Origin: Escherichia phage vB_EcoM_LNA4 | Direction: 5' to 3' (one strand) | DNA: 64,000 nt | Sequence record: MZ311864.1 | Part shown: in pieces, positions 3,811 to 55,163 of the stretch | Layout of the letters: each line of letters starts with the position of its first letter | How positions within the stretch are numbered: the stretch's first letter is position 1 | The notes under the pieces: generated by a model | The model's input: only the letters and a program-made list of their open reading frames with translations | What the model was told of the DNA's origin: nothing | The model's database searches: none | Program-made: the position numbers and the translations under genes

Positions 3811-3836
3811 AAAAAGGCCCCGAAGGGCCTTTATTA
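3811..3836. terminator. bidirectional rho-independent terminator
   Basis: GGCCC-CGAA-GGGCC hairpin flanked by A-run and T-run, immediately after gene ending at 3834. Confidence 0.6.
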
Positions 3837-4985
3837 AGATATTGCTGTTGTGTCTAGAGGTACAAAAGTATAAACCCTTGTTGTGCCAAGACCCGGCAGC
3901 AGTCCGGTGGTGGTATCCTGACCAGTTCCGTACAACGTTCCGTTTATCAGAAGATATGCTGCTTTATAAGCACCACGGGTTCCGTGGTATTCCCCGTCCA
4001 AAACCTGTGTTCCAAGTGCTGTGAAAGAATACTTTATACTTTGCCCTATAACACCATCACCCTGCAACTGACCACTGCTTGTACCAGTGTAGTAAACCCT
4101 ACCAGTTGGGTGCAGATACCTGGCGGAGTACAACCCGATGTACAACTTAGGCGCTCCCTTGGATTTATCCGTGATGTTTGGTGCTACAGCAGTCGGATTT
4201 GAGTAGTTCACACCACCAGTTGCCCCTGTTCCAAGGCTTCCGTCAAATTGTCGTCCTTGAGCATACAAGACATACGCAGATCCGGTCTCCACAACCCTGA
4301 ACCAACCATTAGGTCCGGCTACAATATCCACCACAGTGTTGACGGCGGCTTGTAATGTCCAAGTTGACACAACTGTGGATGTTACCCCAGCCTGTCCAAA
4401 GTCAGAGTTCCCAGCAACATACACAGCCCCCGTGTTCAGCAGCATGTATGAGGTATCAATACTCCCCCAATCAAAGGTGATTTTCTTAACGTTGGTGAAG
4501 TCGGTCCTCATGGTCAGTTGTCTTACGGTTGTTGTATTCCCCTGACCGAGACCGCCGTTACCATTTCTACCGCACATTGCGTATTGCCCGTTTGTGAACA
4601 CCACAGCTATAGATTGATACCCTATGGACACTTCCTTAATGGTCAGCCCAGCCGTGTACGTCATATATGCAGAGACATCCACCGGGGAGGTTATAGTAGA
4701 TCCGAGGGCTGTTGGGAACATAAAGTTGTTACCCATAAACATCCAGCGCCCATCAACCATTTTGAAGAGGACTGCACGGAAACCCACCCAAAAATCCTCA
4801 ACCCCAGCAGACAAAAGTCGCCAAGTCGTTGTTGTCGCCCCTGTTCCACTAAAATACTGGTCACCAATTGTGTAGAGGTTCCCAGATGTTGACAGGGCAA
4901 CGATACCGTTGTCACCAGCATCGAATTTCTTAATATTCCCTGTCGGTACTGGGGTCTTCCCACCAGCTAACATCATCTCGAACAT
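3834..4985 (-). CDS. RCC1-like repeat (beta-propeller) protein
   Basis: 383 aa, Gly/Thr-rich, about five repeats of the form G-N-x-x-G-Q-L/A-G (GRNGNGGLGQG, AGNSDFGQAG, GTSSGQLQGDG...). Confidence 0.5.
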   Translation of the reverse strand: MFEMMLAGGKTPVPTGNIKKFDAGDNGIVALSTSGNLYTIGDQYFSGTGATTTTWRLLSAGVEDFWVGFRAVLFKMVDGRWMFMGNNFMFPTALGSTITSPVDVSAYMTYTAGLTIKEVSIGYQSIAVVFTNGQYAMCGRNGNGGLGQGNTTTVRQLTMRTDFTNVKKITFDWGSIDTSYMLLNTGAVYVAGNSDFGQAGVTSTVVSTWTLQAAVNTVVDIVAGPNGWFRVVETGSAYVLYAQGRQFDGSLGTGATGGVNYSNPTAVAPNITDKSKGAPKLYIGLYSARYLHPTGRVYYTGTSSGQLQGDGVIGQSIKYSFTALGTQVLDGEYHGTRGAYKAAYLLINGTLYGTGQDTTTGLLPGLGTTRVYTFVPLDTTAIS

Positions 4986-6154: not shown

Positions 6155-6275
6155 GTTTTCCGATAGTGTGCCATAACTTCCGCAGTTTTGTCAACAGGAA
6201 CCTTGGTTTTCAGACAATACCAGGCCCCCTCGCGGGAGGCCGAGTCCATAGACATTCTTCCGTAGATGCTGTATG

Positions 6276-6485
6276 TCATCCAACACCCCTTACCTGTATT
6301 GTTTTTGCAACATGGAGCAATGTGTCGATAACAAGATTGTACTTACCCCTAGAAACAGAGTTTTTCGGTTCCTTGTCCCTTAAAAATCGGCAGGTATCTA
6401 TCTGGCTAATGATCTCTTCCATGATCTCTTTTCTCTCAAGCATCTTGCCTAATTCCTCTCTTGCATCACCGTACTCATCGGACAT
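6276..6485 (-). CDS. hypothetical protein
   Basis: 69-aa ORF with AAGGAG RBS. Confidence 0.3.
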   Translation of the reverse strand: MSDEYGDAREELGKMLERKEIMEEIISQIDTCRFLRDKEPKNSVSRGKYNLVIDTLLHVAKTIQVRGVG

Positions 6486-7623
6486 TCTTTTCTCCTTTTG
6501 CTACCTTCAGCATGTGGATTGTGTTCTCCAGGTCTTTCTTCGGCTTACTGTACAGCTTACGACCGTGTTTTGCAAGGAACTTCTCCAGATAGTCCAGTGC
6601 TTTGAATTCAACAATTTCGTTGATAACCTCTGGCACGTTGAACTCTTCCTTCAGCATCTGGTATGCTGCCTTTTTCACCGTAATTGGTGTGCGGCCTTGG
6701 CTGATTGCCATTTCAGTAACCAATCGCTTACGGCTATCAGACCAGTTAGCATTGATAGGGAATGCCTTATATCCGTTTTGCTCCTGGAAAATCTTCACTG
6801 CACGTTCTTGCAGGGTGTCTTTGTCATAACCACGACAATAGTAGCTCGACTCATCCTGATGGTCGAAGTGCTCCAGGTCGTCGTAGTCGCCAACACCGAG
6901 GTCTGCCAGTAACAGAACATCGTCCGACTGAGACAGAAGGCGGGTAGCATTCCAGCGTACCTCAAAATCACTCGCCTGGTTGCGATCACGGTCGAGTGTG
7001 AACACCTCAGCAGGGAAATCGTAGTCGAACTTATACTTACCCTTAACCGTGGTAACGTACAGCCCATTCACATATAGGCGGCAGTCATTGTTGTTCTTTT
7101 TGGCATAAGCCTTACCAAAGCAACGGTCTTCGACGACAATCTCAAGATCTGTACGGGCTGGCGCGTAATTCTTTTTAACAAGATTCATTGCAGAATCAGG
7201 AACGCCGCTGATCGTGATCGTTACACGGTCTTCATCGCGACTTAAAAACTGGTTTTCGATGATATTGATAGACAAAACCTTCTCATCAAAAAGGTCGTCC
7301 ATCTCGAACTGTGGTTTCCACAGGTCTTTCCCGTTTTTCACCGTGATATCAGCGCCTTCACGCAACAGGCACAGGAAGCCCACCTTCATCCCCTCACCGA
7401 ACTTACCGATCTTGGTGTCGTCATCCTCTTTGGTGGTTTTACCCATAAGAAGGGACTGGATAGGCATCTTGCCACCGCAGGAAGAAATGGTGATCGAGTC
7501 ATTGTCGAACAGCACAGTATGATCACCTGCGTCAATGGCGTTTTGAATAAGCTCACGGATGCCTTCCCACCATGACCAATGGGCTACATATGTTGGGGCA
7601 ATGCTTAACTTGATACTTTTCAT
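6475..7623 (-). CDS. GHKL-type ATPase domain protein
   Basis: N-terminal Bergerat-fold motif ELIQNAIDA and G-rich box GKFGEGMKVGF; start set at MKSIKL with AAGGAGA RBS. Confidence 0.55.
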   Translation of the reverse strand: MKSIKLSIAPTYVAHWSWWEGIRELIQNAIDAGDHTVLFDNDSITISSCGGKMPIQSLLMGKTTKEDDDTKIGKFGEGMKVGFLCLLREGADITVKNGKDLWKPQFEMDDLFDEKVLSINIIENQFLSRDEDRVTITISGVPDSAMNLVKKNYAPARTDLEIVVEDRCFGKAYAKKNNNDCRLYVNGLYVTTVKGKYKFDYDFPAEVFTLDRDRNQASDFEVRWNATRLLSQSDDVLLLADLGVGDYDDLEHFDHQDESSYYCRGYDKDTLQERAVKIFQEQNGYKAFPINANWSDSRKRLVTEMAISQGRTPITVKKAAYQMLKEEFNVPEVINEIVEFKALDYLEKFLAKHGRKLYSKPKKDLENTIHMLKVAKGEKNVR

Positions 7624-7742
7624 AGTTTCTCCTTGAAACGTTTTATGTCCAAGCATTATTACACAAAGAAAACAGATGTCAACCATTGACTAAGGGTTTT
7701 TATCCTGATAATCTTACCAGACACATACAGAGGAGACATAAA

Positions 7743-7991
7743 ATGTCCGAACAAGTTCTTGAACAAGATAAGTACAAAATTTACGAAGTCGTCCTTGTAG
7801 ACGGTCAGTTCGAAGCGACTATCCGTGACATCTTCACCAGGACTATTCGTGTGGAAGGAAAGAATGGTGAAGAAGACACCTTCGTTACCCACGTATCCTA
7901 CCGTATGCACGAGAAGGAGTGGTGGTACGAAGAAATCCTGCCGCATCGTGTGCAGAAACTCAATGGAAAAATCAACTTTGGAGCTAAATAA
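7743..7991 (+). CDS. hypothetical protein
   Basis: Plus-strand ORF MSEQVLEQDKYKIYEV... inside minus-strand region, GAGGAGA RBS. Confidence 0.45.
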   Translation: MSEQVLEQDKYKIYEVVLVDGQFEATIRDIFTRTIRVEGKNGEEDTFVTHVSYRMHEKEWWYEEILPHRVQKLNGKINFGAK

Positions 7992-8302
7992 TGGATTTAC
8001 TGGAAGATAAAGGCGGTCGTCCGGACCGCAATGAAATTGATCCTCGTGTCGGGCCTGGTAAGGTGTGTATCATCTACGGTTTCGACCCGAAAAACCCCAA
8101 CACTGGGCCTCTCAATGGGTTACAGTGCATGGTACATGAAAAGGTTATCCGTAGCGGAAATATCTTCTTCCCTTTTGGGGAGACATGGTATGCCTGCACC
8201 GTATATGGCCTGAAGGGTATCACAAATCTCCGTGCTGATCACCTGATGGTGACCGATGACTCCGATGTCCTTATTATTGAGAAAATGAGGGCTGATAAAT
8301 AA
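7991..8302 (+). CDS. hypothetical protein
   Basis: 103 aa, TAATG overlap with preceding plus-strand gene. Confidence 0.45.
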   Translation: MDLLEDKGGRPDRNEIDPRVGPGKVCIIYGFDPKNPNTGPLNGLQCMVHEKVIRSGNIFFPFGETWYACTVYGLKGITNLRADHLMVTDDSDVLIIEKMRADK

Positions 8303-8330
8303 AAGAAAACCCGCCTTTCGGCGGGTTATG
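8301..8330. terminator. bidirectional terminator between convergent genes
   Basis: AACCCGCC-TTTC-GGCGGGTT hairpin with A-run upstream and T-rich downstream. Confidence 0.55.
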
Positions 8331-10347: not shown

Positions 10348-10546
10348 TTCTTCTCCTCATCACATAGTGAAGCAAAGTTGCCAGCGGCCAGGCGAACCCG
10401 ACCGCGAAACAAATCTCGGACCAGTCATGATCCGACTTCGCCTTGTAAACCTGCTTAAGAACTTTATCGTTCTCCATCTTCACGGAGTATACCACAGCAA
10501 TAACAGCATATGCAACCCCAATTATGCCGATAGCTGCCTCAAGCAT
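10334..10546 (-). CDS. small membrane protein
   Basis: 70 aa, hydrophobic N-terminus. Confidence 0.35.
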   Translation of the reverse strand: MLEAAIGIIGVAYAVIAVVYSVKMENDKVLKQVYKAKSDHDWSEICFAVGFAWPLATLLHYVMRRRNAAA

Positions 10547-11612
10547 CCATACTCGCCCAGCAGATATCCTGCGCTGTCATCAGAACACGAGATGCTAACT
10601 CAAGGTCGGTATATTTCGGAAGATCAGTCTTTTTGTACAGGTCTTCGCGGATATATCGGTCCTTCTCGTCGGCCCATGCCAAGAGTTCGTCAAGAGTCCA
10701 CTTGCCAGCACGGATATCCAGCAGTTCCTGAGCGTCAGGGCGTTTCACCAGGACCTTGCCGTCAGTCAGGATCTCTTCAGCCATACGCATCAGACGCACA
10801 AGGTGCATAGCGTGTTTGGTGTCATAACCAAAATTCACCTCAAGCTGGTGACGCACTTCGTTACGGTTCTGTTTCCAAGTCCAGTAGTTGCGGTGCTTCT
10901 CTTTTGCCTGCTTGTGTTCCTCTGCCAAGTATTTCACAATGAACACAGGTTTACGGCGCTTATCCGTATCAGACAGTTGCTGGTAATCTACATGGCGAAT
11001 AGAACCATCTGCATTGAACATACCGGAACTGCTGAAGTTTTCCATAACACCATAGATGTCATTACCGTAAGGGACAAGGACACACATATCATTCAGATTG
11101 GTCATTGCCTCCATGAAACGTTCATGTTTTACAACACCTGCAAGGAAAGGGTGTTCGCTGTAGTTGTGTACCAACCGGAAGAATTCCTTTTGTGTTGGCT
11201 TGGCCTCCGGCTGAGGGTTGGTGATCCATTTATCATGACCACGGATACGCTTCAACTGAGCCATAGCGTAACCAGAAAAGCTAAATGCCACCTTACTTGA
11301 CATAAGCTCAGGGGCCATTGTTCGCAGGTACGCGTAAGCTTCTGAACTTGAGATCAGGTCTTTTTCATCAACGAACATCAATTCGATAATGTTTGGGTTC
11401 ATCTCTACAAACAACTTCATGAAGTTCGTCAGTTCATAGATCTTCCCGTCCTCCTCATCAACAAGCGTCTGCTCTTTGATATTGAAGAATGGGGTACGGA
11501 TGAACTTCTGCTCCGCACAGAAAAGACCACGGATATCCACATCCGATGTTGGGAGGTTTGTCCCGTATGCGAGGCTACCGGAGTAGCAGCGCATCATATC
11601 AAAAGTTTTCAT
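10539..11612 (-). CDS. Pol-beta-superfamily nucleotidyltransferase
   Basis: Motif GSLAYGTNLPTSDVDI (GS...SDxD) near N-terminus; start set at MKTFDMM with AAGGAG RBS. Confidence 0.55.
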   Translation of the reverse strand: MKTFDMMRCYSGSLAYGTNLPTSDVDIRGLFCAEQKFIRTPFFNIKEQTLVDEEDGKIYELTNFMKLFVEMNPNIIELMFVDEKDLISSSEAYAYLRTMAPELMSSKVAFSFSGYAMAQLKRIRGHDKWITNPQPEAKPTQKEFFRLVHNYSEHPFLAGVVKHERFMEAMTNLNDMCVLVPYGNDIYGVMENFSSSGMFNADGSIRHVDYQQLSDTDKRRKPVFIVKYLAEEHKQAKEKHRNYWTWKQNRNEVRHQLEVNFGYDTKHAMHLVRLMRMAEEILTDGKVLVKRPDAQELLDIRAGKWTLDELLAWADEKDRYIREDLYKKTDLPKYTDLELASRVLMTAQDICWASMDA

Positions 11613-11620
11613 ATATCTCC

Positions 11621-12004
11621 TTAAGAGGTGACAAGTTTCATTGGGCGCTTCATATCCCAGAAGTTGAGAAGTCCCTGACACAGTTGTTTTGTCGGCAGGC
11701 CTTCTTTGTTCATTGGGGCCTCATCACGAAGCCGACGAATCTCTTCCAGAAGAAGAATCACTTCGTCAGGATAATAACCCGTAGGCTCTTCGGCCTTGAT
11801 GATACACTCACCGGACTTCCATTTAGACATCGAGTAGCGATGTTCCGGATCTGGGTGGTTAGGCCACGAATCAACCAAGATTTTTGCCTTATTTCCCCTT
11901 ATCTCCTTCACTACTCCGGGGCGTAATTGGTTGTATCCCCAGTAGAGATACACCTCGTCGCCCAGCTTAAGTCTTTCACCACGAACATCGTTCATATTAA
12001 CCAC
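11621..12004 (-). CDS. hypothetical protein
   Basis: 127-aa ORF. Confidence 0.4.
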   Translation of the reverse strand: MVNMNDVRGERLKLGDEVYLYWGYNQLRPGVVKEIRGNKAKILVDSWPNHPDPEHRYSMSKWKSGECIIKAEEPTGYYPDEVILLLEEIRRLRDEAPMNKEGLPTKQLCQGLLNFWDMKRPMKLVTS

Positions 12005-14202: not shown

Positions 14203-15456
14203 CTACCACTTAATTTCACGCCGGGTGATGCTACGGATAGCGTCAATACGAGCTACACGAATCGCCTCACCAATCTCGATACCGCTCTTATCCTTTGCAA
14301 GACACTCAGCAGAGATCACCTTTGTATCAACGGCTTTCATGCAACGGAAAGCATCCATCAGCACGTAACCCTGTGGGTATGGCTCTGCCATTTTGGTTGG
14401 GCCACGACCCTTCGCATCACAGAAACAAGCATCAGCCAGAGCAGAGACCTTCATAGCGGTTTTCGCGCTTGCCACGTTGCCAGCGGCTTCAAACAGCTTC
14501 ATCAGTGAGCGGGGTTTTGCACCTTTGTTGCCTCCACGAGGAGCAATGCAGTGTACACGCGTGTGGTGCTCAGTCACATACAGAGCTACATCACGGAAGT
14601 CGTTAGGAACACGGATACGCTCGCACAACTCACGCACTGGTTCAAGACCCTCTTCTTCGTGACCGATCAGATTACCATACTTACGGAAAGTGAGCGCTTT
14701 ACCGAAGTCGTGGCACAGAACAGCGAACTTGGTGTATGGGTTTGCCTCATAGATGTCTGCCACATCAAGACACAGCAGCGTATGAATGAAAGCATCCCCT
14801 TCCGGGTGGTGTTCCGGTGGTTGTGCTACACCACGGAGGGCATCAAGCTCAGGCAATTCACCAAGCTCTGCCATTGCCTCCGCGTAGGCCCGGAAGTTAT
14901 CAGAGGCCAGAGCCTTCTCCATTTCTTTCCACTTGCGCTCACCGCTGATGTGTGACAGACCATAACGGTTATTGAAGCACAGGGCTTTAGTATCTGCATG
15001 GATTTCCCACTCTTTACCCAACTGGGCTTTAAAGCGGTAGACACGTAGGATACGCAGCGGATCGTCAAGGAATGCCAGCGTTGTATGACGCAGGATTTTC
15101 TTTTCGATATCATACTGACCACCAAACGGGTCAATGATCTCACCTGTCTCAAGGTCTTGAGCCATAGCGTTGATCGTCAGGTCACGACGAGACAGATCCT
15201 CCACCAATGTCACATCGGGGCTGAAGAATGTCTCGAAGTCGGTATGACCGTTACCAGTCTTACGCTCAGTACGGGCCAGGGCATACTCTTCGTTGGTTTC
15301 AGGATGCAGGTATACTGGAAAAGCAGCGCCAACCTGGGTGAAACCTTTATTGATCATTTCTTCGTGCGTTGCACCCACAACCACGTAGTCACGGTCATGA
15401 ACTTCACGACCAAGCAAACCATCACGCACAGCGCCGCCTACCAAATATACCTTCAT
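14203..15456 (-). CDS. cca: tRNA nucleotidyltransferase (CCA-adding enzyme) with HD domain
   Basis: N-terminal MKVYLVGGAVRDGLLGREVHDRDYVV head motif and HD-domain histidines (HHPEGD); 417 aa. Confidence 0.8.
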   Translation of the reverse strand: MKVYLVGGAVRDGLLGREVHDRDYVVVGATHEEMINKGFTQVGAAFPVYLHPETNEEYALARTERKTGNGHTDFETFFSPDVTLVEDLSRRDLTINAMAQDLETGEIIDPFGGQYDIEKKILRHTTLAFLDDPLRILRVYRFKAQLGKEWEIHADTKALCFNNRYGLSHISGERKWKEMEKALASDNFRAYAEAMAELGELPELDALRGVAQPPEHHPEGDAFIHTLLCLDVADIYEANPYTKFAVLCHDFGKALTFRKYGNLIGHEEEGLEPVRELCERIRVPNDFRDVALYVTEHHTRVHCIAPRGGNKGAKPRSLMKLFEAAGNVASAKTAMKVSALADACFCDAKGRGPTKMAEPYPQGYVLMDAFRCMKAVDTKVISAECLAKDKSGIEIGEAIRVARIDAIRSITRREIKW

Positions 15457-17447: not shown

Positions 17448-17961
17448 CGCTCTGTCCCTCCAGGAAGTAAAATGGTTCCAGATTAAGTCTGTTCTTCTTG
17501 TCCCAGACAAAATAGGCATAGCCTGAACCGTCTGTCTTGCCGTCATCTGTGAATGATGGTCTTTGAGATAAGACCATCAGACTGGTTGGCTTATTGCTCT
17601 GCCACCATTCGTTTCTTGTCTGACTTTCCAAGAAACCAAGACGAAGTAACATGATCACAACATCGGCATCTTCAAGAGCCTTGGCAACAAATGCCTGAGC
17701 TAAAGAATATGGTGGATTTGTGATGATACAGTCAACATGGTTGTACTCGGTATTCAGATAATCCACACCATGACGAATTTCACCCCAAGCAGAACCAATC
17801 GGCATATGGTTGTAGAATCTACCAGACGCTCTACAAGGCTCTAAGTATTTCCAGTGTGGGTTGATAGGGATAACATCCAAAAGGGCCGTCACAGCCCATT
17901 CTGGTGTCTCATATACGTCATAATCCCTACGTTCTCCCTTCTTCTTCAAAGGCGCAGACAT
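17281..17961 (-). CDS. DNA N6-adenine methyltransferase (Dam-like); 3' end uncertain
   Basis: Catalytic motif DCIITNPPYS; C-terminal 50-60 residues look like out-of-frame translation of the next gene. Confidence 0.6.
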   Translation of the reverse strand: MSAPLKKKGERRDYDVYETPEWAVTALLDVIPINPHWKYLEPCRASGRFYNHMPIGSAWGEIRHGVDYLNTEYNHVDCIITNPPYSLAQAFVAKALEDADVVIMLLRLGFLESQTRNEWWQSNKPTSLMVLSQRPSFTDDGKTDGSGYAYFVWDKKNRLNLEPFYFLEGQSDECRKQDARDRKQRRKANAARNERHLRPDSERDSSVCKEGDVRDGTLNGLPGGDE

Positions 17962-18893
17962 TAGTTCCCCATTCTCTCCAGGACATCAGCCATAATCTCT
18001 TCTGAAGCTGCCAGAATAGCATCAATCAGCTCTTGACGATTACGAACGTTGACAACCAGAGGATCTTCGGCCCCGATAGCCATTGCACCAATCTGGGAGT
18101 AGATGGTTTGCAGTTCTGCCACGTTGAATGGGTCGAAGTCCTTAGCCTGAAGTGTAGACACATCGAACTTGAATACCTCTCCCTCAACTTCGATTTTCAG
18201 GAAGATGCTCTCCGGGGTTCCTGCCGGAAGGTTATCCAGATCAACATTCTCAATCACAGTTTTGTCTTTCGGCCCCTTCTCCTTCTCACCGGAGATGATT
18301 GGGCGTTGACCTTCCTGCATACGTTTGATGTTGCGCTCATCAAGCAGAACTGCCGGGGTGCGTTTCACGATCTCCACTTCATCCATCCAGACCTGTCCAC
18401 CACCTTTGATTGTGGCGATCTCCGTTTCTGTCAGAACACCACTGTAGAAGGTATCGATCAAACGATCAAAATAGTGCTTCTCAAAGGCAATTTGTGCGTA
18501 CATGTTTGCACCATCACCATATGTCCCACCCTGATAGTTGTGGAACATAAACTCGGTCAGCGGAGACACTGTACGATCCTTACAGGCCAGCCACAGGACT
18601 GTACCAGCAGAGCAGACATTGCCCTCTGCGTGTGTCACGATAGACGCCTGGCTTTCACGAATTGCGCTTACGTAGGCCATAGCGATGGAGACAACACCAC
18701 CAGGGCTGTTGATCACCACACGAATAGTATCATCGGGGGATGCCTGACGGATTACCTGCAAACGGTCCTGATGGTCTTCCAGCCATGACAGGTCATCAAT
18801 GTAGATGACATGATCGTGAGAGTGAACAGGGTAGCTGTAGATATTCCCGTGCATACCCGGCATCATACCGAAAAAGTTCTTGTTCTGTTCCAT
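17961..18893 (-). CDS. ClpP/S49-like serine peptidase
   Basis: VVINSPGGVVS motif typical of ClpP-type proteases; start at MEQNKN with GAGGAGG RBS; TAATG overlap with methyltransferase gene. Confidence 0.55.
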   Translation of the reverse strand: MEQNKNFFGMMPGMHGNIYSYPVHSHDHVIYIDDLSWLEDHQDRLQVIRQASPDDTIRVVINSPGGVVSIAMAYVSAIRESQASIVTHAEGNVCSAGTVLWLACKDRTVSPLTEFMFHNYQGGTYGDGANMYAQIAFEKHYFDRLIDTFYSGVLTETEIATIKGGGQVWMDEVEIVKRTPAVLLDERNIKRMQEGQRPIISGEKEKGPKDKTVIENVDLDNLPAGTPESIFLKIEVEGEVFKFDVSTLQAKDFDPFNVAELQTIYSQIGAMAIGAEDPLVVNVRNRQELIDAILAASEEIMADVLERMGN

Positions 18894-18894
18894 A

Positions 18895-19377
18895 TTAATC
18901 CTCCTCACGAGCGTTTGCAATGTAGCCTTTCAGAATGTAAGCATTTCTCATCAGCCAGTCGATGTAATACCCTGTTTCGTCATCGACAAGTACCTGGTCG
19001 CTGTACTTGAATGTCACGAGAACTTTTCTCGCCCTTTCAGAGGCTACTGCTGCGGTGTGCAGCATGGTGAACTTGTCAAGCTCTTCTTTCTCAACAGTCA
19101 CATATTTGGATTTACCATCCAGATAAATCAGGTGGTTAAGTAAATCACGACGATCCGGGAACATCCACCGTGCATCTCGTTCTGCTGCGGCTGGACTATA
19201 AATCATTCGGGTAAAGAACCCATCGTTCATCTCATACAGAGACTGAGCCACTACCTTGCGATAAAAATTGAAGAGGCTTTCCGCTTCAGCATCAAACAGC
19301 CCTGGAGAAACTACCCCACAATTCTTCAACTCCATCAGTTTTCGATGGGAGATAACCCCATGAATACTAACTGTCAT
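18895..19377 (-). CDS. hypothetical protein
   Basis: 160-aa ORF with AGGAG RBS. Confidence 0.45.
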   Translation of the reverse strand: MTVSIHGVISHRKLMELKNCGVVSPGLFDAEAESLFNFYRKVVAQSLYEMNDGFFTRMIYSPAAAERDARWMFPDRRDLLNHLIYLDGKSKYVTVEKEELDKFTMLHTAAVASERARKVLVTFKYSDQVLVDDETGYYIDWLMRNAYILKGYIANAREED

Positions 19378-54284: not shown

Positions 54285-54313
54285 TTGCAAAAGATTGTTT
54301 TCACTGATAAAGT
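54285..54313 (+). promoter_or_regulatory. sigma70-like promoter
   Basis: TTGCAA, 17-bp spacer, TAAAGT upstream of tRNA at 54322. Confidence 0.3.
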
Positions 54314-54321
54314 AATTACAT

Positions 54322-54410
54322 GGTTCTTTGACCGAGAGGCCGATGGTAGCAGGCTGTTAACCTGCCTGGAGTAATCCACGACGAAGGTTCGAATCCTTCA
54401 GGAACCGCCA
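54322..54410 (+). tRNA. tRNA with GTT anticodon (Asn) and long variable arm
   Basis: Canonical loop CTGTTAA on GCAGG/CCTGC stem, 17-nt variable arm with TGGA/TCCA stem, T-arm GAAGGTTCGAATCCTTC, G73, CCA. Confidence 0.6.
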
Positions 54411-54443
54411 AATTAGGTGATACGCTACCTTAAGTGCGAACTT

Positions 54444-54520
54444 GAAAATTAATGGGGCCGTGGCTGACAAGGTAATGGTGCCGCACTGTCTATGCGGAAA
54501 ATGAGGGTTCGATCCCCTTC
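54444..54520 (+). tRNA. tRNA-Asp (GTC)
   Basis: Loop CTGTCTA on CCGCA/TGCGG stem, T-arm GAGGGTTCGATCCCCTT, CCA. Confidence 0.6.
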
Positions 54521-54713
54521 GGTCTCGCCAATTTGATATGTTGATGTAAATTGCCGGAAGGCACTCAAAATGAGTTCGACATATCAAACCAAATACGCTC
54601 TTGCAGGAAAGGTTAGCCTCCCTGCAATGTCACACTAGGTGATCAGAGCGGATCAAATTAGCTAGCCAGCGATACCAGTTGCAGTGTCTGGGACAATTAA
54701 AATTCTGCACCTT

Positions 54714-54791
54714 CGGAGCGTAGCGCAGTCTGGTCAGCGTGGGAGCCTTGGATGCTCTGGGTCGCAGGTTCGAATCCTGCCGCTCCGACCA
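54714..54791 (+). tRNA. tRNA-Pro (TGG)
   Basis: Loop CTTGGAT, T-arm GCAGGTTCGAATCCTGC, CCA. Confidence 0.8.
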
Positions 54792-54796
54792 ATTTA

Positions 54797-54872
54797 GCAG
54801 GTATAGTTCAACTGGACAGAGCATCAGTTTACGAAGCTGAGAATCGGGGTTCGAATCCCTGTATCTGCACCA
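54797..54872 (+). tRNA. tRNA-Arg (ACG)
   Basis: Loop TTACGAA, T-arm CGGGGTTCGAATCCCTG, CCA. Confidence 0.8.
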
Positions 54873-54907
54873 AATTAAGGCTTGGATTTCTTCGGACCCA
54901 AGCGCAC

Positions 54908-54984
54908 GGGCGATTGATGGAATTGGTATACGTGTCGGATTTAGATTCCGAATTTTGGGGGTTCGAGTCCCCTGTCGCCCACCA
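54908..54984 (+). tRNA. tRNA-Leu (TAG), short variable arm
   Basis: Loop TTTAGAT on TCGGA/TCCGA stem, A73, T-arm GGGGGTTCGAGTCCCCT, CCA; no long variable arm. Confidence 0.6.
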
Positions 54985-54991
54985 ATCCTTC

Positions 54992-55067
54992 GGGACTGTA
55001 GCTCAGTTGGTAGAGCACCTGATTGAAGATCAGGGTGTCGGTGGTTCGAATCCACTCGGTCCCGCCA
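54992..55067 (+). tRNA. tRNA-Phe (GAA)
   Basis: Loop TTGAAGA on CCTGA/TCAGG stem, T-arm GGTGGTTCGAATCCACT, CCA. Confidence 0.8.
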
Positions 55068-55073
55068 AATAAT

Positions 55074-55146
55074 TGCGAGCTAGAATTCTGGTGAATTCAC
55101 GAGTCTCATAAGCTTGTTCAGAGGGGTTCGATTCCGCTGCTCGCAA
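55074..55146 (+). tRNA. tRNA with CAT anticodon (Met or Ile2), no encoded CCA
   Basis: Perfect acceptor TGCGAGC/GCTCGCA, loop CTCATAA, T-loop TTCGATT; 3' end lacks CCA. Confidence 0.6.
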
Positions 55147-55163
55147 CTAACAGAGGACTTAAT

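Follow-up and report, generated by a model that had tools for sequence, protein, structure and literature searches.

A stand-alone GHKL-fold protein with a degenerate G1 box, encoded early in Escherichia phage vB_EcoM_LNA4, and its largely phage-borne family

We analyzed a stretch of 64,000 nucleotides from Escherichia phage vB_EcoM_LNA4 (sequence record MZ311864.1; the whole stretch is hereafter named the window), and report on one minus-strand gene whose product, a protein of 382 amino acids, carries the Bergerat nucleotide-binding fold of GHKL ATPases. This GHKL protein belongs to a large family found almost only in phages, and we argue below that it may be an active nucleoside triphosphatase (NTPase) with a modified base-binding pocket. 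The window is related to Cronobacter phage vB_CsaM_GAP31 (Vequintavirinae, Seunavirus), the two sharing 89% nucleotide identity around the gene, and the GHKL protein is 97% identical to its ortholog GAP31_101. In a mechanical list of open reading frames (ORFs), the gene runs up to an ATG at 7686. Its true start is the ATG at 7623, because a ribosome-binding sequence, AAGGAG, lies 5 nucleotides upstream, GAP31_101 is annotated at 382 amino acids, and the upstream ATG is replaced by ATA in GAP31. Between the two orthologs, 81 of the 94 nucleotide differences fall at third codon positions, 78 codon differences are synonymous and 11 non-synonymous, and the ratio of non-synonymous to synonymous substitution rates (dN/dS) is 0.036. 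This is a real gene under strong purifying selection. An ORF of 248 amino acids on the opposite strand (6166-6912) was considered and discarded as an antisense artefact.

Coordinates are collected in Table 1. The promoter heading the gene is the top-scoring site of the region, and its TTGACA, TG and cATAAT elements are kept in GAP31. Since it is a near-consensus sigma-70 promoter, readable by the host RNA polymerase, the gene is taken to be early, in agreement with an earlier note on this DNA, which had placed it in an early region. The terminator found further upstream ends the preceding minus-strand unit, so that the GHKL gene opens a new transcript. Between this terminator and the GHKL promoter lie two small divergent genes on the plus strand (7686-8302; 101 and 103 amino acids, without Pfam matches), and GAP31 carries the same pair (GAP31_102 and GAP31_103).

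Table 1. Features of the GHKL gene and its control region (positions in the window)
Feature	Position	Strand	Remark
Coding sequence of the GHKL-fold protein, 382 amino acids, stop codon included	6475..7623	-	ORF list; ortholog is GAP31_101
Bergerat (GHKL) nucleotide-binding domain, residues 1-155	7159..7623	-	
Motif I / N box, R23-E24-L-I-Q-N28-A-I-D31-A (general-base Glu, Mg-binding Asn)	7528..7557	-	R23, E24, Q27, N28, D31 invariant
Degenerate motif II / G1 box, I46-S-S48-C-G-G-K-M-P54	7462..7488	-	Ser48 at adenine-binding Asp position
ATP lid and motif III / G2 box, G61-x-T-T-K65...I-G73-K-F-G76-E-G78-M-K80...R88	7360..7443	-	G61, K65, G73, G76, E77, G78, K80, R88 invariant
Five-stranded beta sub-domain (residues 160-205), then invariant loop L210-D-R212-D213-R214	6976..7146	-	From the secondary structure of the two models
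Mostly helical C-terminal domain specific to the family, without recognisable fold, residues 219-382	6478..6969	-	
Shine-Dalgarno sequence AAGGAG, 5 nucleotides 5' of ATG 7623	7629..7634	-	Sequence read; identical in GAP31
Sigma-70-type promoter TTGACA-N16-AATAAT with extended -10 TG, heading the GHKL transcription unit	7655..7682	-	11 of 12 consensus matches
Intrinsic terminator closing the upstream minus-strand unit	8308..8327	-	8-bp stem with 6 GC pairs, then T run

Residues 1-155 form the alpha/beta sandwich of the Bergerat fold. The assignment is secure, because structural evidence, a profile-profile match, motif invariance across the family and relatives scoring above the HATPase_c_3 and HATPase_c thresholds all converge on it. 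With hhalign, the family profile matched E. coli HtpG at 91.9% probability (E 6.9e-7, 38% identity over 66 columns), the alignment ending after the G2 box, and E. coli MutL at 9.5%. In the fold search, Hsp90, topoisomerase II, MutL and MORC outscored kinases. Fold search and profile comparison thus bear out the GHKL type, close to Hsp90, MutL and MORC, that had been proposed from the letters alone. Among curated families, the NCBIfam sacsin ATP-binding model NF047352 was the best named match for all 32 aligned family members (top E 1.3e-8), each time below its curated cut-off, and HATPase_c_3 matched 16 of the 32, one of which exceeds the gathering score. Searching the PDB sequences with the single protein gave no relevant match; when the family profile was used, MORC2, HtpG and sacsin came up only at E 0.65-1.3, the lid/G2 region of MORC2 and HtpG aligning with the lid and motif III of the GHKL protein. 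No Pfam HSP90 match was seen at E up to 10, nor, in Pfam at the same limit, a HisKA/DHp or other kinase-specific domain. The only PHROG matches are 6077 and 8203, the former over the full length (E 4.9e-136, residues 1-377 against profile positions 1-365 of 366).

We examined the conservation of the motifs in a family alignment of 197 representatives (300-560 amino acids), taken from a library clustered at 50% identity. Invariant or nearly invariant positions are L6, Y12, W16, R23, E24, Q27, N28, D31, L58, G61, K65, G73, G76, E77, G78, K80, L84, L86, R88, W102 and L117, followed on the C-terminal side by G187, Y201, L210, R212, D213, R214 and D249. In the hhalign alignment, motif I stands opposite LRELISNASDA of HtpG. 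The earlier note had taken ELIQNAIDA for the ATP lid and GKFGEGMK for the G1 box; the names have to be shifted, the former being motif I (the N box), and the latter motif III (the G2 box) at the lid hinge. Residues 68-73 are predicted with a local confidence score (pLDDT) below 50 in the structure model, as expected of a mobile lid. The true G1 box is degenerate: SITISSCGGKM lies opposite TLTISDNGVGM of HtpG, with Ser48 facing the Asp, and across the 197 representatives this position is occupied by Ser (103), Asn (70), Thr (20) or Asp (2). Read from the alignment, the half of the predicted pocket that handles phosphate, Mg and catalysis is frozen, and the half that recognises the base is relaxed family-wide.

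Downstream of residue 155, the two structure models agree on a beta sub-domain (160-205), a loop (210-214) and a mostly helical domain (219-375). No known fold was recognised there, in keeping with the earlier description of the C-terminal part as unknown sequence: residues 156-382 (227 amino acids) match no solved fold, and no S5-fold transducer domain was detected in the GHKL protein. The invariant residues of the beta sub-domain and loop region are G187, Y201, L210, R212, D213 and R214, of which the last three make up a conspicuous Arg-Asp-Arg (RDR) motif. When the profile of the middle region was compared with HtpG with filters off, its best placement was the KLYVQRVFI strand of HtpG, at about 0 bits; the HtpG middle domain reads KLYVQRVFIMD...LNVSRE at this place. 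Although the placement falls on the expected strand, homology of the RDR region with the Hsp90 middle domain was not accepted at such a score. By analogy, the RDR loop might nonetheless act as an arginine loop of the Hsp90 kind. The C-terminal tails were also compared, and 186 of 196 members fall in a single homologous cluster, which rules out a variable, swappable "adaptor" C-terminus. To judge by these tails, the C-terminal domain belongs to the conserved parts of the family and evolves fast.

Four metagenomic relatives of about 1,100 amino acids (P0110, P0125, P0141 and P0151) contain three tandem copies of the 1-230 module. They score up to 62 bits against HATPase_c_3, and all 12 of their modules have both a canonical DxGxG box and the RDR motif. 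This indicates that RDR is part of the ancestral ATPase machinery, and that the Asp was lost secondarily in the single-module phage family. The triple-module proteins (with locus L043, 8001-11348) also share a conserved C-terminal tail with HExxH ... FENALT. Its matches are weak, each of them to the active site of a zincin metalloprotease (NleC, E 0.44; WLM, 0.031; M48, 0.17). The arrangement may be one of three ATPase modules plus a peptidase, recalling the three repeats of sacsin. This is the sole fusion among the longer family members, with a weak zincin assignment, and apart from it no informative domain fusion was found, either among these longer members or among 208 profile matches in a database of 5.8 billion proteins.

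We then quantified how widely the family is spread. An exhaustive HMMER scan of 1.84 billion representative sequences gave at least 2,358 clusters (50% identity) with an E cut-off of 1e-3, and 1,512 with one of 1e-10. By tblastn, the gene was found in 113 deposited phage genomes (38 of Vibrio, 18 of Pseudomonas, 10 of Pectobacterium, 8 of Escherichia, 6 of Erwinia, and others), which cover myo-, sipho- and podovirus-sized genomes. In 185,579 species genomes, a pattern-based scan detected at least 23 loci; among the matches listed, three cover the whole module, all on contigs of metagenome-assembled genomes (MAGs). Other loci, in Dehalococcoidia and Myxococcota MAGs or genomes (L019-L023 and L027-L037), match over the first ~100 residues only, from the N to the G2 box, at 32-38% identity. 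These partial cellular matches are probably bacterial sacsin-like or HATPase_c_3 proteins. All sampled contexts of the family resemble phage genomes, and the family is essentially phage-restricted, being rare in cellular genomes among the matches listed.

Homologs bear a variety of public labels: "hypothetical protein", "histidine kinase-like ATPase", "HATPase", "sacsin-beta sandwich", "chaperon protein htpG" and "RIIA lysis inhibitor". The GHKL fold call is thus correct without being new, homologs having already been labelled HATPase or HtpG-like. Two of the labels, which conflict with each other, can be traced to orthologs at 47-48% identity. The product labelled "chaperon protein htpG" in Pectobacterium phage PcCB7V (MW367417.1, L040 2501-3706) owes its name to the N-terminal fold only, and the "RIIA lysis inhibitor" label in Klebsiella phage phi1_175008 (PQ360875.1, L042 3001-4146; 48% identity) is unsupported by profile tests.

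In several phages, the gene lies among replication functions. In Pseudoalteromonas phage PH1, it is co-directional within a replication operon, between DNA polymerase/primase genes and those for exonuclease VIII, a Dda helicase and a DNA polymerase. In Vibrio phage VPMS1, it is again co-directional in the replication operon, with primase, Dda helicase and endonuclease V on one side, and a DUF2815 DNA-binding protein, PolA and ThyA on the other. In PaMx11, PcCB7V, KF-1, Vibrio phage 1.158.O, MW202665 and L012, genes for a ligase, primase, helicase or polymerase occur within a few kb. The view that such a protein is not a typical phage function was therefore overstated, the family being present in 113 deposited phage genomes and, in several of them, in a replication module. 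No gene was a consistent neighbour in about 15 sampled contexts. Small ORFs overlapping the stop codon in three phages were considered as partners and rejected, as they are mutually unrelated in sequence.

We propose that the GHKL protein is a stand-alone, single-module GHKL NTPase of the short-lid Hsp90/sacsin/MORC type, a reading to which, together with the catalytic mechanism that follows, we give a probability of about 0.55. In this mechanism, Asn28, Lys65 of the lid and the G73-x-x-G76-E-G78-x-K80 box would hold a Mg-NTP, Glu24 would activate the attacking water, and an Arg of the invariant R212-D-R214 loop would reach the gamma-phosphate, as does Arg380 in Hsp90 and as has been proposed for Arg474 in sacsin. 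Through its nucleotide cycle, the protein would control a conformational switch or clamp, whose output would presumably be passed by the family-specific C-terminal domain to a protein or DNA target. The field of action might most likely be phage DNA replication or recombination, or else early takeover, because the gene lies inside replication operons of several unrelated phages; the genomic contexts give no more than a slight lean this way. The invariance of Glu24, Asn28, Lys65, the glycine box and Arg212-Asp-Arg214 argues for an active NTPase, and the protein would be a Mg-NTPase whose pocket works as has been proposed for that of sacsin. The base is probably bound less tightly, or with less specificity, than canonical GHKL enzymes bind it, since the motif II Asp is replaced and the motif IV Thr is not conserved. 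A more daring form of the proposal would make the family a phage-restricted, minimal "sacsin-type" NTPase, in which base recognition has been remodelled and catalysis kept, serving either a non-adenine nucleotide or a nucleotide-derived immune signal, or a new kind of nucleotide-gated clamp in phage replication; we regard it as improbable.

Several observations weigh against an active NTPase, or against parts of the proposed mechanism. The D-x-G-x-G signature that defines motif II in the GHKL superfamily is missing from the GHKL protein. In GHKL proteins, adenine is contacted mainly by the motif II Asp, which bonds to adenine N6, and yeast Hsp90 D79N loses ATP binding. At position 135, the candidate for the motif IV Thr by strand order, Thr is found in 54 and Ser in 23 of the 197 representatives. 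Taken together, the missing motif II Asp and the lack of conservation at motif IV might signify that the protein binds no ATP. On its own, the protein stays below the cut-offs of HATPase_c_3 (E 1.1e-3, 19.4 bits, cut-off 25), Pfam SACS (PF25794; E 7e-3, 16.6 bits, cut-off 32.8) and NF047352 (E 1.3e-6, 28.8 bits, cut-off 50). No structural match to a transducer or middle domain was found for residues 156-382, and the tentative equivalence of RDR with the Hsp90 catalytic loop rests on the ~0-bit placement and on analogy. As for the contexts, no replication module surrounds the gene in the window or in GAP31, where it lies among small early genes, nor does one in Pluto or in two contigs with lysis genes nearby. 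The link with DNA metabolism hinted at by the family contexts is only suggestive. The label "ATPase" is thus plausible but not assured, because the G1 box is degenerate, with Ser48 in place of the adenine-binding Asp.

A rival reading is that of a pseudo-ATPase, in which the Bergerat fold would be kept as a nucleotide-free scaffold for stoichiometric binding of a host or phage partner. Replacement of the adenine-binding Asp in 195 of the 197 representatives, a candidate motif IV Thr that is not conserved, and curated HATPase profiles that all remain below threshold are as expected of such a protein, and the SR1 region of sacsin alone has low ATPase activity (PMC9880540). However, the residues that serve only Mg-phosphate binding and catalysis (E24, N28, K65, three glycines and R212/R214) are invariant, while they are the ones that pseudoenzymes usually lose, and the low dN/dS also speaks against this reading. 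Moreover, sacsin has Asn at the position of Hsp90 Asp79 in all three repeats (N160 in the structure-based Table 1 of PMC9880540), and a larger sacsin fragment, unlike SR1 alone, has an ATPase activity comparable to that of yeast Hsp90 (PMC9880540). A non-Asp motif II is thus compatible with activity when the downstream region is present, and we hold a pseudo-ATPase to be unlikely, while still a serious competitor. The same asymmetry of the pocket, with its base-recognition half altered (Asp to Ser, Asn or Thr; motif IV relaxed) and its phosphate half invariant, would also fit a pocket retuned for another NTP or for a nucleotide-derived immune signal, which the protein would sequester or hydrolyse as a counter-defence. 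An early, accessory gene, patchy in its distribution and restricted to phages, would suit such a role. Yet the protein resembles no known anti-defence protein: among the PADLOC defence and anti-defence families, the only match was to TmtA (E 5.9e-4), in the same motif region and of the generic GHKL kind, and a literature search on Tiamat/TmtA found nothing usable. In addition, sacsin, in which the substitution is comparable, is considered an ATP user, and the gene is often in replication operons rather than in anti-defence islands, so that this possibility appears distinctly doubtful. For the effector or anti-defence role put forward in the earlier note, the analysis brought no evidence either way.

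A short protein of the rIIA type, with a GHKL N-domain and a variable C-domain, could protect the phage from prophage exclusion, as T4 rIIA does against RexAB. The idea draws on the pipeline-annotated Klebsiella ortholog mentioned above, on the VRELITNMIDA and IGGFGLGSK boxes of T4 rIIA, and on the description of T4 rIIA orthologs as an N-terminal GHKL ATPase followed by a variable C-terminal domain (PMC7824862). Membership in the rIIA family was rejected on the profiles: hhalign of the family against T4 rIIA gave 8.7% probability over 23 columns, and T4 rIIA matches seven rIIA/rIIB PHROGs where the GHKL protein matches none (including PHROG 612, 2979, 3661 and 609). BLASTP with T4 rIIA finds the N box only, the GHKL protein is half as long as T4 rIIA (725 amino acids), and T4 rIIA retains a canonical DFGPGM. 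There is no rIIB-like partner next to the gene, and the window holds no rIIA homolog or module paralog elsewhere. We thus see rIIA as a loose functional analogy, the function of rIIA being itself poorly understood (PMC7824862), and a true rIIA-like role as very improbable. There is even less reason to favour a GHKL protein kinase, comparable to histidine kinases, PDK/BCK or SpoIIAB, that would phosphorylate a host or phage protein: kinases score lower in the fold search, no HisKA/DHp or kinase-specific domain was seen at E up to 10, both the R-E-L-I-x-N-A-x-D-A box and the lid belong to the Hsp90/HATPase_c_3 type, and little credit can be given to it. Finally, the single-sequence Pfam and PDB matches are individually non-significant, as they would be if the motifs were coincidental and the protein unrelated to GHKL ATPases. 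Structural and profile-profile evidence, including the HtpG match, family-wide invariance of the motifs in the 197 representatives, and relatives that strongly exceed the HATPase_c_3 and HATPase_c thresholds make this practically untenable, and the coincidence of motifs that the earlier note had named as its refutation can be set aside. We therefore retain the single-module NTPase as the preferred reading.

Other genes of the window deserve mention. Directly downstream of the small-gene operon that the GHKL gene heads, a minus-strand gene (3834-4985, 383 amino acids) codes for RCC1-like beta-propeller repeats (RCC1_2, E 4e-10; WD40_RLD, 7.8e-21, below cut-off). Two further minus-strand genes encode an RlaP-type (RNA-repair-associated) nucleotidyltransferase of the DNA polymerase beta family (10539-11681), and a protein with a CCA-adding/poly(A)-polymerase head and an HD domain (14203-15456). 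Their presence a few kb apart in the early region suggests a phage set for repair or maturation of transfer RNA (tRNA) or other RNA. A ClpP-type serine protease domain (E 4.7e-12) is found in a 319-residue ORF (17961-18920, minus strand) of the non-structural minus-strand region. On the plus strand, 22 tRNA genes are clustered at 49029-55147, for 18 amino acids, with two tRNA-Met, three tRNA-Arg, three tRNA-Ser and two tRNA-Leu. GC skew becomes positive at about 44 kb, and the cluster sits in that part of the window.

GHKL ATPases power chaperoning (Hsp90), mismatch repair (MutL), DNA topology and chromatin compaction (MORC). To our knowledge, the only phage users of the fold known so far are topoisomerase II and the enigmatic rIIA. 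Finding the target of the GHKL protein would fill a recurrent, conserved gap in phage early and replication modules. The same pattern, a modified motif II with the rest of the site kept, is seen in the human ataxia protein sacsin, whose ATPase activity is debated, and a soluble phage protein of 382 amino acids could offer an easy experimental system for this question. If the prediction is true, a minimal sacsin-type NTPase would be a small, tractable model of an ATPase working without the canonical Asp.

Compared to known GHKL families, the present one is set apart by its single module, the loss of the Asp with catalytic residues kept, the invariant RDR loop, a C-terminal domain without known fold, and its near-exclusive occurrence in phages. 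Among uncharacterised families, PHROG 6077 takes in the GHKL protein over its full length. Precomputed matches to PF25856 (MPN635_N) are attached to many of the more distant family members, but were not reproduced with a local Pfam copy; the literature is silent on the function of this domain, MPN635 being known only as a non-essential gene of Mycoplasma pneumoniae (PMC9825166). MORC, MutL and type II topoisomerases differ from the GHKL protein, in which no S5 transducer and no Toprim, endonuclease or CW-type partner domain were detected, the MutL alignment stays at 9.5%, and motif II is degenerate. T4 rIIA (PHROG 612 and related) is likewise phage-encoded and joins a GHKL domain at its N-terminus to a C-terminal region specific to its lineage, but the GHKL protein is no closer to it than generic GHKL similarity. 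With respect to Hsp90/HtpG, the adenine-binding Asp has given way to Ser48, the lid is shorter by about 14 residues, and the protein (382 amino acids against ~620-700) has no recognisable middle or C-terminal dimerisation domain.

A close parallel is found in sacsin (SR1/HSP-NRD), even though the GHKL protein scores under both curated sacsin cut-offs (NF047352 and PF25794). Both have a non-Asp motif II, with Asn in sacsin and Ser, Asn or Thr in the phage family. In sacsin, Ser178-x-Lys180 sits 8 residues before Gly188, Lys180 being predicted to touch the gamma-phosphate (PMC9880540), and in the phage family Thr/Ser63-x-Lys65 stands exactly 8 residues before Gly73. The sacsin lid falls short of that of Hsp90 by about 12 residues (PMC9880540); the distance from motif II to the first glycine of the G2 box is 25 residues in the phage family, 28 in sacsin and 39 in yeast Hsp90 (numbering of PMC9880540). 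Lastly, sacsin R474, together with a neighbouring Arg, has been proposed as the equivalent of the catalytic Arg380 of Hsp90 (PMC9880540), and the phage family likewise has a candidate downstream catalytic Arg with a second Arg nearby.

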